A DNA stretch of 64,000 nt from Clostridiales bacterium (GCA_031263785.1 JAISFC010000023.1:20679-84678); one strand, 5' to 3'; positions 55,701 to 56,375 are shown, numbered from the stretch's first letter. Program-made: numbers and translations. Notes: generated from the letters alone by a model not told the origin.

Positions 55701-56375
55701 TTCCGGAATTGTCAATACTCCTGTCAATTTACTGCACGAGAGGAATGCACGCTCACCTATGTTAGTCACTCCAGCAGGCATATTTAAGTCTCCCGTCAAG
55801 CCGCTGCAACCGTTAAATGCACTTCTTTCTATGTTCTTCAAGCTTTCTGGCAGCGTCAACGCTCCTGTAAAGCCGCTACACGAGGTAAACGCAAGCGTTC
55901 CTATGCTCACCACTCCTTCCGGAATCGTCAATGCTCCCGTCAATTTATTGCAACTGTAAAACGCATAATTACCTATACTCGTCACGCCGGAGTCAATTGT
56001 AAGGCTTGTTACAGAATCCTTAAACGAATTCCATGGCATATTGCTGCCATTGTAATTCGTCATAGTGCCTGTTCCCGATATAGTTAAATTGCCTGTCGCG
56101 CCTGTGAAGGTCCATGTGAGGCTAGCTCCACATGTGCCGTTTGCGTCATCGGCGGCGTAGGTTATTTGCGTATTTAAAAATACTTCTCCCGCAAAAAGAG
56201 AAGTAAATAAAACAATAGAAATTATTAAGCTACATAATTTCTTTGCAAATGAAAATTCCGGGAAGTCCGTTAAGTTAAAAAACGATATTGAGGTCTTATC
56301 CTCTCTCTCTCTCTCTCTCTCTCTCTCTCTCTCTCTCTCTCTCTCTCTCTCTCTAGAATAATCACGTTTTTTCAT
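52734..56375 (-). CDS. BspA-type leucine-rich-repeat surface protein, paralog 2; in frame through (AG)27 (phase-ON as assembled)
   Basis: SD, then ATG 56375 encoding MKKRDYS(RE)9DKTSISFFNLTDFPEFSFAKKLCSLIISIVLFTSLFAG (signal anchor). Many LRR_5-like units, two YTG..DYTVxYxNN..GTA..GNY.G modules, and the shared C-terminal module. Confidence 0.88.
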   Translation of the reverse strand: MKKRDYSREREREREREREREREREDKTSISFFNLTDFPEFSFAKKLCSLIISIVLFTSLFAGEVFLNTQITYAADDANGTCGASLTWTFTGATGNLTISGTGTMTNYNGSNMPWNSFKDSVTSLTIDSGVTSIGNYAFYSCNKLTGALTIPEGVVSIGTLAFTSCSGFTGALTLPESLKNIERSAFNGCSGLTGDLNMPAGVTNIGERAFLSCSKLTGVLTIPEGITSIGYATFYYCSGLTGVLTLPESLESIGESAFQGCSGLTGDLTIPAGVTSIGTKAFSQCSKFDGALTLPESLESIGTYAFTLCSGLTGGLTIPSKITRIEHSAFNSCSGLTGDLTIPEGVTFIDDFAFTLCSGFDGALTLPEGLESIGEDAFGTCSGLTGGLKIPEGVISIGEKAFILCSSLTGELTLPESLESIGRSAFNNCVGLTGDLNIPAGVTNIGERAFLSCSKLTGVLTIQEGITSIGYATFYYCSGLTGVLTLPESLESIGQQAFTGIGSTAINVDADNVNYVSIDGILYDKALTTLIQCPAGKQGEVAIPEGVTSIGFYAFCSCGKLTGEVTIPTSVDSIGESAFFDSNKLESVTVPDGVTTIGADVFSYTSADFVINCHYGSAAETYAKSNSLKYNNLYDAEITGVIDVEYTGSAVTQSSVVVEAKTVANPAGIEIVEEMDYTVSYLDNIDVGTATVTVTGINNYVGTLDRTFTISAATFTVENIAAQRYAGSEIKPEVVAKNGDVTLVKDADYTVTYSNNVDAGMATVTVTGIGNYTGTVNAQFHILEDVKVILTPDAIAKNAGYDGHIDVSFDASTIGYDAYVLAIPMLFDNDTIEITNLETVDFDTKNLTGLLVNGTFLSGARDYDSSSEVLSVINSEGKFLLSWTVEEDIPLVPHTLTDDVYFTIHYRVKENVPTSASFAIGEYNIDSDIDQDQIFGVDGRGILSSNQDDFGAYLLVDGEHGILTQDYINVTVEDMPTVTISGDVNSISLQGRAMLTGKQRTPISAVGYTPNLNKIDAGIRVEMYEVDDVGDIVKQVGSVAYTQEMNMTAAIGDPTSTLYNYTLNIPRTVANDLKISDPNQSSPKYMLRFSRFGDNGGSVVGTVREESYLWADIYLDGTNVNTGTIDEAIPMTVGGTAYLYAGAFYLPTADKFALTTSDLNTIKGQVGNADITGVTTIYNINEYLGVDAADYTTVLRYVGQKKLQTLPLAVTN
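56301..56354 (-). repeat. (AG)27 microsatellite in the 5' coding region of LRR paralog 2
   Basis: An alternating C/T run from 56301 to 56354 is 54 nt, and 21+54=75 nt from the ATG keeps the frame. Confidence 0.95.

Follow-up and report, generated by a model that had tools for sequence, protein, structure and literature searches.

The DNA considered here is a stretch of 64,000 nucleotides from the metagenome-assembled genome (MAG) of a Clostridiales bacterium (GCA_031263785.1, JAISFC010000023.1:20679-84678), hereafter called the window. It carries three paralogous genes for leucine-rich repeat (LRR) proteins, c1, c2 and c3, each with a long AG dinucleotide tract a few codons after its start codon. 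All three genes are on the minus strand, and the plus strand carries (CT)n at each tract. The surroundings are those of a core chromosomal Firmicute region, with genes for PolC, DnaB, L9, GdpP, PNPase, RecG, MnmE and SLH-domain wall proteins. We describe the tracts, the genes behind them and the sequences in front of them, and discuss the probable role of the tracts as translational switches.

The same order of elements is found in all three genes: ATGAAAAAACGTGATTATTC(T/G), then (AG)n, then GATAAGACC, then a hydrophobic signal segment. The start codon of c1 and its six leader codons (ATGAAAAAACGTGATTATTCT, encoding MKKRDYS) lie at 56355..56375 with the ATG at 56375, and the tract, (AG)27, follows at 56301..56354, beginning at nucleotide 22 of the open reading frame (ORF), which is codon 8. 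The gene strand reads ATG AAA AAA CGT GAT TAT TCT (AG)27 GAT AAG ACC, and the plus strand of 56301-56375 reads ...ggtcttatc(CT)27agaataatcacgttttttcat... The c2 gene has the leader ATGAAAAAACGTGATTATTCT at 32906..32926 (ATG at 32926) and an (AG)23 tract at 32860..32905, and c3 has the leader ATGAAAAAACGTGATTATTCG at 63504..63524 (ATG at 63524) and an (AG)25 tract at 63454..63503, all on the minus strand. Between copies the 21-nt leader is identical at 20 or 21 of its 21 positions, and GATAAGACCTCAA, on the 3′ side of the tract, is identical throughout.

The tracts are perfect arrays, with 100% matches and no indels. A regular-expression scan and Tandem Repeats Finder agreed on this, and both returned the unit counts (27, 23 and 25) and tract coordinates given in a preliminary description of this DNA. 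Its account of three LRR paralogs that open with the same ATG leader and continue into a pure AG run was likewise borne out by the sequence and by both repeat finders. Its statement that the copies also have the same Shine-Dalgarno sequence was not, as that region differs between them. Within the window, the regular-expression scan found dinucleotide runs of six or more units at these three tracts only. There are three matches to the junction pattern TATTCK(AG)20, for which 100 shuffles gave an expectation of 0.00, and a chance origin of the repeat was rejected on that expectation of zero.

The length of the tract determines what follows it. Whatever the frame, the tract encodes (RE)n or (ER)n and is free of stop codons. 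Translation in all frames confirmed the rule that had been proposed earlier, namely that n must be a multiple of 3; 21+2n is divisible by 3 only at n=27 among the three copies. Read from the ATG, the (AG)27 of c1 gives (RE)9 and leaves the body of the gene in phase (ON), and the ATG frame runs into DKTSISFFNLTDFPEFSFAKK-LCSLIISIVLFTSLF... and on through a 1213-aa ORF (52734..56375), the length predicted for this protein beforehand. At n=23 the ATG frame of c2 closes after 23 residues. Counted from the ATG, its body lies in frame +1 (OFF), and an additional unit would bring it back into phase. At n=25 the ATG frame of c3 closes after 33 residues, with the body in frame +2 (OFF); here the loss of one unit would restore it.

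The bodies themselves are intact. There are 1188 open codons 3′ of the tract in c1, 1062 in c2 and 1539 in c3. The c1 ORF encodes BspA-type LRRs and a 455-aa C-terminal domain common to the family. The bodies of c2 (29671..32859, minus strand) and c3 (58834..63453, minus strand) consist of 1062 and 1539 stop-free sense codons, respectively, each with a stop codon at the end. All three match PF13306 (LRR_5) far above its gathering cut-off of 27.7 bits, at 379.5 bits for c1 (E=4e-115), 299.8 for c2 (E=1.9e-90) and 203.5 for c3 (E=1.1e-60). At E≤0.001, LRR_5 is the only Pfam family found in c1 and c2, and c3 also has a sub-threshold match to Beta_helix_3.

The genes are mosaics. They have in common a 5′ module, extending from about -210 (c1 and c2) or about -125 (c3) to about +420, and a 3′ module of about 1.3 kb with 80-86% nucleotide identity that encodes the 455-aa C-terminal domain. 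The middle is variable, with differing numbers of LRRs and other repeats. The C-terminal domain had no informative match in Pfam (E≤1), in a PDB profile search or in NCBIfam, and its AlphaFold (AF2) model has a predicted local distance difference test score (pLDDT) of 34.

The ratio of nonsynonymous to synonymous substitution rates (dN/dS) in the C-terminal domain is 0.11-0.13 at dS of 0.74-1.03, and this includes the pair c2-c3, in which both copies are OFF. Over the first 140 codons it is 0.26-0.46. The low C-terminal dN/dS and the intact bodies indicate that the OFF copies are kept functional, and on the same two grounds the idea that they are decaying pseudogenes was rejected. A variant of this idea is that c2 and c3 are fixed pseudogenes, killed by frameshift, with c1 as the only functional gene and no reversible switching. 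It would account for two of three copies being out of frame with their ATG, and annotation as pseudogenes would also explain why none of the three appears in the protein database. However, c2 and c3 show no further lesion in 1062 and 1539 codons, and neither their dN/dS nor the conservation of the promoter block (96-99%) is what this explanation would lead one to expect. The sole defect in each lies inside a perfect, hypermutable tract and is one unit away from the ON frame. We therefore consider fixed pseudogenes highly improbable.

The proteins are very probably exported, judging from a hydrophobic core located between a KK pair and an A-x-A-like site. In c1 this core spans residues 47-61 (LCSLIISIVLFTSLF; 56193..56237, minus strand) and has a mean Kyte-Doolittle hydropathy of 2.5. 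On its N-terminal side is FAKK and on its C-terminal side ...ITYA/ADD, the slash marking the predicted cleavage site.

In front of each gene is a 5′ cassette, made up of the variable Shine-Dalgarno region and an upstream block of about 105 nt. The cassettes lie at 56376..56500 (c1), 32927..33050 (c2) and 63525..63645 (c3), all on the minus strand. The upstream block is 96-99% identical in the three copies, which differ at 1-4 positions, and a 36-mer inside it is identical in all of them. Unlike these near-uniform flanks, the coding sequence adjoining the tract has diverged to dS of 0.49-0.66.

The preliminary description took the family to have three members. The N-terminal 139 aa and the C-terminal domain served as queries against 5.8 billion protein clusters; the strong matches all came from the same MAG, the few remaining ones were weak, and the family was found to have at least eight paralogs in this genome. 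One of them, P0001, is a partial protein from another contig of the MAG and begins MIIL(ER)5E-DRTS, which corresponds to a reading in the GTG frame that is also present in c2. This start implies an (AG)17 tract in frame +1, as deduced from the protein. P0002 begins MKKCDYSKERGDRTS... and has the same leader (MKK(C/R)DYS) in frame but lacks an expanded tract. The annotated start of P0013 is an internal one directly 3′ of the signal core, which suggests that its 5′ end is out of frame. P0006, P0011 and P0012 are represented by C-terminal pieces located where contigs end.

The tract is thus found at four lengths, 17 (deduced, P0001), 23, 25 and 27, in four paralogs whose flanks are nearly identical. 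Judged from these copies, tract length appears to change far faster than the flanks. The uniformity of the cassette could come either from strong constraint or from gene conversion, while tract length drifts.

Taken together, these observations make slipped-strand translational phase variation of the LRR surface-protein family the probable function of the tracts. In this model, each paralog would carry a portable cassette consisting of the promoter and 5′ untranslated region (UTR) block, a Shine-Dalgarno sequence, ATG-MKKRDYS, (AG)n, DKTS and the signal sequence. Misalignment of nascent and template strands in the pure tract during replication would add or remove 2-nt units, and with a stop-free tract the sole effect would be on the frame in which the ribosome exits. 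When n is a multiple of 3, as in c1, the ATG would be in frame with the signal sequence and LRR body, allowing the protein to be made and exported. At any other n, as in c2 and c3, translation from the ATG would end at 23-33 residues and the protein would not be made. Copies would switch independently and reversibly, so that the set of LRR surface proteins shown by a clonal population would keep changing. Steps of three units would preserve the frame, altering only the length of the charge-neutral (RE)n stretch that precedes the FAKK n-region, and should be tolerated.

From the sequence we infer that slippage takes place, that expression is ON or OFF accordingly and that the proteins reach the cell surface. 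What stands of the original proposal of slipped-strand phase variation is its foundation: a pure tract at the 5′ end, a frame set by that tract, OFF bodies under selection, differing lengths and a secreted LRR multigene family. They make the mechanism very plausible. The size of the family had been understated, and the novelty of the finding overstated.

Several observations weigh against this model. The tract lengths were read from the consensus of one MAG, in which a one-unit stutter or a mis-joined cassette could alter the ON/OFF assignments, and 23 and 25 each neighbor 24. The genes c1-c3 are missing from the protein database and hence are without an independent gene call. A search with the 20-nt leader pattern returned only chance matches in genome contigs (1 locus) and metagenome contigs (4 loci). 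A contig from SRR14710921 (L006, positions 1-40 of which correspond to the window from 33040 onward) starts at the cassette edge and does not contain the tract. The frame +1 copies, c2 and P0001, have a GTG (within CGTGAT) from which the body can be read in frame. Finally, no LPXTG, SLH or other anchor motif and no known domain was found in the C-terminal 455 aa; because no wall anchor was recognized, attachment to the surface is something we infer.

Some of these points would fit a stutter or assembly artefact. All copies could then be in frame (for example, n=24, 27, 24 and 18), and the tract would be a length-polymorphic (RE)n spacer. The numbers allow it, as 23 and 25 are each one unit away from 24, and the deduced 17 is one unit away from 18. 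The lengths are those of a MAG consensus, paralog-shared flanks hamper the placement of reads, and the Logan assembly of SRR14710921 breaks at the cassette edge. However, three of the four tracts would each need an error. The housekeeping ORFs are intact and of normal length (DnaB 445, PNPase 693, RecG 670, iPGM 510 and GdpP 630 aa), which indicates that the assembly is not generally frameshift-prone. An artefact is improbable on these grounds. Even if it were true, long pure dinucleotide tracts are intrinsically slippage-prone, so frame switching would still be expected of pure (AG)17-27.

The in-frame GTG raises a different question, whether the tract acts through the ATG frame at all. Translation might start at the GTG (+11) or downstream of the tract, or the homopurine tract might work at the DNA or RNA level, as H-DNA or as a translation enhancer, its length tuning expression instead of gating it. 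In c2 the GTG lies at 32914-32916 in frame with the body, and the annotator used GTG for P0001. Given this codon, the OFF state of frame +1 copies is not strictly proven, yet the GTG is without a Shine-Dalgarno sequence: the purine-rich, Shine-Dalgarno-like run located 4-11 nt 5′ of the ATG is 14-21 nt from the GTG. A start downstream of the tract was rejected, as frame translation and ORF calls found no start codon conserved across copies between the tract and the hydrophobic core. In c3 the first start codon in the body frame comes only at 63387. P0002 retains the leader in frame even though it has no tract. The Shine-Dalgarno-like spacing, the in-frame leader of P0002 and the lack of a conserved downstream start together argue that the ATG is the real start.

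A role at the DNA level would draw on the capacity of (AG)n.(CT)n mirror repeats to form triplex DNA. At the RNA level, the 5′UTR, leader and tract fold no better than shuffled sequences (z=-0.57), and Rfam identified only tRNA in the window and nothing at the cassette region. Neither Rfam nor the fold z-score indicates an RNA-level device at the tract. Overall, we regard an action of the tract outside the ATG frame as very unlikely. The earlier assignment of c1 as ON and the other two copies as OFF is upheld by translation as far as the frames are concerned. A strict OFF state is not, in view of the in-frame GTG in c2 and the single MAG consensus.

For the three LRR proteins of the window, the ORF versions 29671-32916, 52734-56375 and 58834-63387 were absent from a collection of 15 billion sequences in which their neighbors and the paralogs from the same MAG were present. 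It is probable that c1-c3 were annotated as pseudogenes or with other starts. A 368-aa neighbor of c1 is 100% identical to MDR1101129.1 (LBL34_02055) of a Clostridiales bacterium MAG, which assigns the window to this MAG. No encoding contigs were returned for c1, P0001, P0002, P0004, P0005, P0013 or this 368-aa neighbor, and the leader-tract junction had no match in viral contigs. A search of 1.84 billion representative proteins with an N-terminal profile was swamped by LRRs, and none of the best 150 matches aligned to the leader. The SRR14710921 Logan contig, which was found through the PgsA-like neighbor of c2, has neighbor genes identical to those of c2. Assemblies break at these LRR genes.

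The upstream blocks contain a further element, RTTACA repeats phased at 11 nt, located at 56452-56493 in c1, 33002-33043 in c2 and 63602-63643 in c3. On the gene strand, RTTACA at 11- or 22-nt spacing forms only four clusters in the window, all on the minus strand. Three, at 33008-33041, 56458-56491 and 63608-63641, are 5′ of the LRR paralogs and the fourth, at 42475-42508, is 5′ of an SLH-domain gene (37531..42312). The clusters suggest a common DNA-binding regulator of surface-protein genes. The window also has a gene for an OmpR-type response regulator, at 15276..15998.

The SLH-domain gene (37531-42312, minus strand) encodes a 1593-aa surface protein that has SLH domains at its C-terminus, a Listeria-Bacteroides repeat domain and numerous internal repeats, each about 90 aa long. 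Its long (PTPS)n linker is encoded by a 12-nt repeat present 22 times at 38772-39033. This protein shows that SLH anchoring is used in the host, and the LRR family is without SLH domains.

The cassette might conceivably act as a multi-layer control module, combining three-valued frames, export tuning and RTTACA control. Frame 0 would give full expression from the ATG, frame +1 a weak, GTG-initiated MIIL(ER)n variant, and frame +2 nothing. Within frame 0, export would be tuned by a shorter or longer (RE)n spacer (n=21, 24 or 27). Deterministic control beneath the stochastic switch would come from the RTTACA sites with 11-nt phasing, shared with the SLH gene, and at least five paralogs would have received the cassette by gene conversion. 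We regard this combination as unlikely.

The preliminary description did not recognize, as something already described, long AG tracts in the charged N-region of the signal peptide of Gram-positive LRR adhesins. This overstated the novelty, as there are precedents in scl2 of Streptococcus pyogenes, in the CT repeats of Helicobacter pylori and in Candidatus Mycoplasma girerdii. By analogy with these, the mechanism would be one that is already known; what is new is the protein family and the organism.

In H. pylori, the hop genes sabA, sabB, hopZ and babB carry CT repeats in their signal sequences, as does another member, oipA (hopH). In oipA the CT repeats lie in the region coding for the signal peptide and gate translation by slippage (PMC10564699). 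As in our genes, a CT/AG dinucleotide is located in the 5′ signal-region coding sequence of genes for surface proteins, the number of units sets the frame and there are several paralogs, which switch independently in H. pylori, as our model predicts for c1-c3. The Hop proteins are Gram-negative β-barrel outer membrane proteins (OMPs), in contrast to the BspA-type LRR proteins found here. The coding strand of H. pylori has CT, encoding Leu-Ser within the hydrophobic signal region, whereas here it has AG, encoding Arg-Glu ahead of the core. The H. pylori tracts are also much shorter and often interrupted, compared to 17-27 perfect units. No Hop or OMP domain was found in c1, c2 or c3 with Pfam, and the likeness is one of mechanism only.

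The closest parallel in protein type is Candidatus Mycoplasma girerdii, for which at least 28 BspA-like genes are reported, eight of them with dinucleotide repeats of 5-12 units and with length variants at the level of reads (PMC5476646). The repeats are in or near the genes, and many copies are OFF in the consensus (PMC5476646). Both organisms are Firmicutes-affiliated and have a large family of BspA-like LRR proteins discovered by genome-resolved metagenomics, and frameshifts of plus or minus one unit are part of that account too. There are also clear differences. The eight motifs in M. girerdii are all different, and a shared 5′ cassette is not known to us from that family; here the repeat is always AG, always at codon 8 and always within a near-identical cassette. 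Read-level variants are reported for M. girerdii, whereas our lengths are those of the consensus. Lastly, M. girerdii is a wall-less Mollicute and our organism is a walled Clostridiales bacterium with SLH-domain proteins.

Neisseria opa genes form a multigene family of adhesins in which CTCTT repeats in the sequence coding for the leader peptide undergo independent slippage switching. The unit there is a pentamer, the host is Gram-negative and the fold is unrelated. In S. pyogenes, scl2 (sclB) has pentanucleotide repeats directly after its start codon, and a strain with 13 repeats terminates translation prematurely (PMC3022705). Like c1-c3, scl2 is a gene for a Gram-positive surface protein with a simple repeat immediately 3′ of the start codon, in the signal-sequence region. 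It differs in its repeat unit (a CAAAA/AACAA pentamer instead of a dinucleotide), in being a single gene instead of a family, and in encoding a collagen-like LPXTG protein instead of an LRR protein.

As regards the proteins themselves, the streptococcal HupY/LrrG and pneumococcal PcpA are Gram-positive LRR adhesins with a BspA-type LRR region, as found here. The NCBIfam model adhesin_HupY matches c1 at E=7.7e-47, with 160 bits against a family cut-off of 1250, which indicates that c1 is not an ortholog of HupY. We know of no repeat-based switch in the genes for HupY/LrrG or PcpA.

The enrichment of simple repeats toward the N-terminus has been analyzed across genomes as a signature of phase variation (PMC3315296). 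What distinguishes the present case is the combination of 17-27 perfect AG units, their position at codon 8, the near-identical cassette, an (RE)n stretch placed before the hydrophobic core, and a walled Clostridiales host.

To our knowledge, most simple-repeat contingency loci on record are those of Gram-negative pathogens, Mollicutes and a small number of streptococci. If our model is confirmed, a walled, uncultured Clostridiales lineage would join the organisms that use them, and the link between the BspA-type LRR family and dinucleotide switching would reach beyond M. girerdii. By bacterial standards, tracts of 17-27 perfect units are very long, and rapid switching would be expected. Cells with different surfaces would then coexist as a mosaic within a population, with a bearing on interactions with a host or with phages. 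There is also a lesson for annotation. Genes of this kind end up annotated as pseudogenes or with a truncated start, and assemblies break at them, leading to their under-representation in protein databases. The absence of c1-c3 from the 5.8 billion clusters is an example.

The immediate neighbors of the LRR genes deserve brief mention. Directly 3′ of c1 on the same strand, 169 nt past its stop codon, is a gene for signal peptidase I (52014..52565, minus strand; TIGR02227, E=4.5e-29), which overlaps a 164-aa ORF with no assigned function (51530..52024, minus strand). It is possible that the signal peptidase I region is co-transcribed with c1. This neighbor is present at c1 only, and c2 and c3 are without it. 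Between two of the LRR loci, a 1367-aa protein with no signal sequence is encoded at 47139-51242 (minus strand); it has only marginal matches, one to DUF4116 and one, in its C-terminal part, to an HD domain. Finally, the region between tRNA-His (58015-58091) and the stop codon of c3 is packed with repeats (58100-58830). It contains tandem units of 64 nt and 46 nt, and an (AGGGAAC)x4 array at 58479-58509 that faces an inverted (CCTGTTC)x9 array at 58707-58774.

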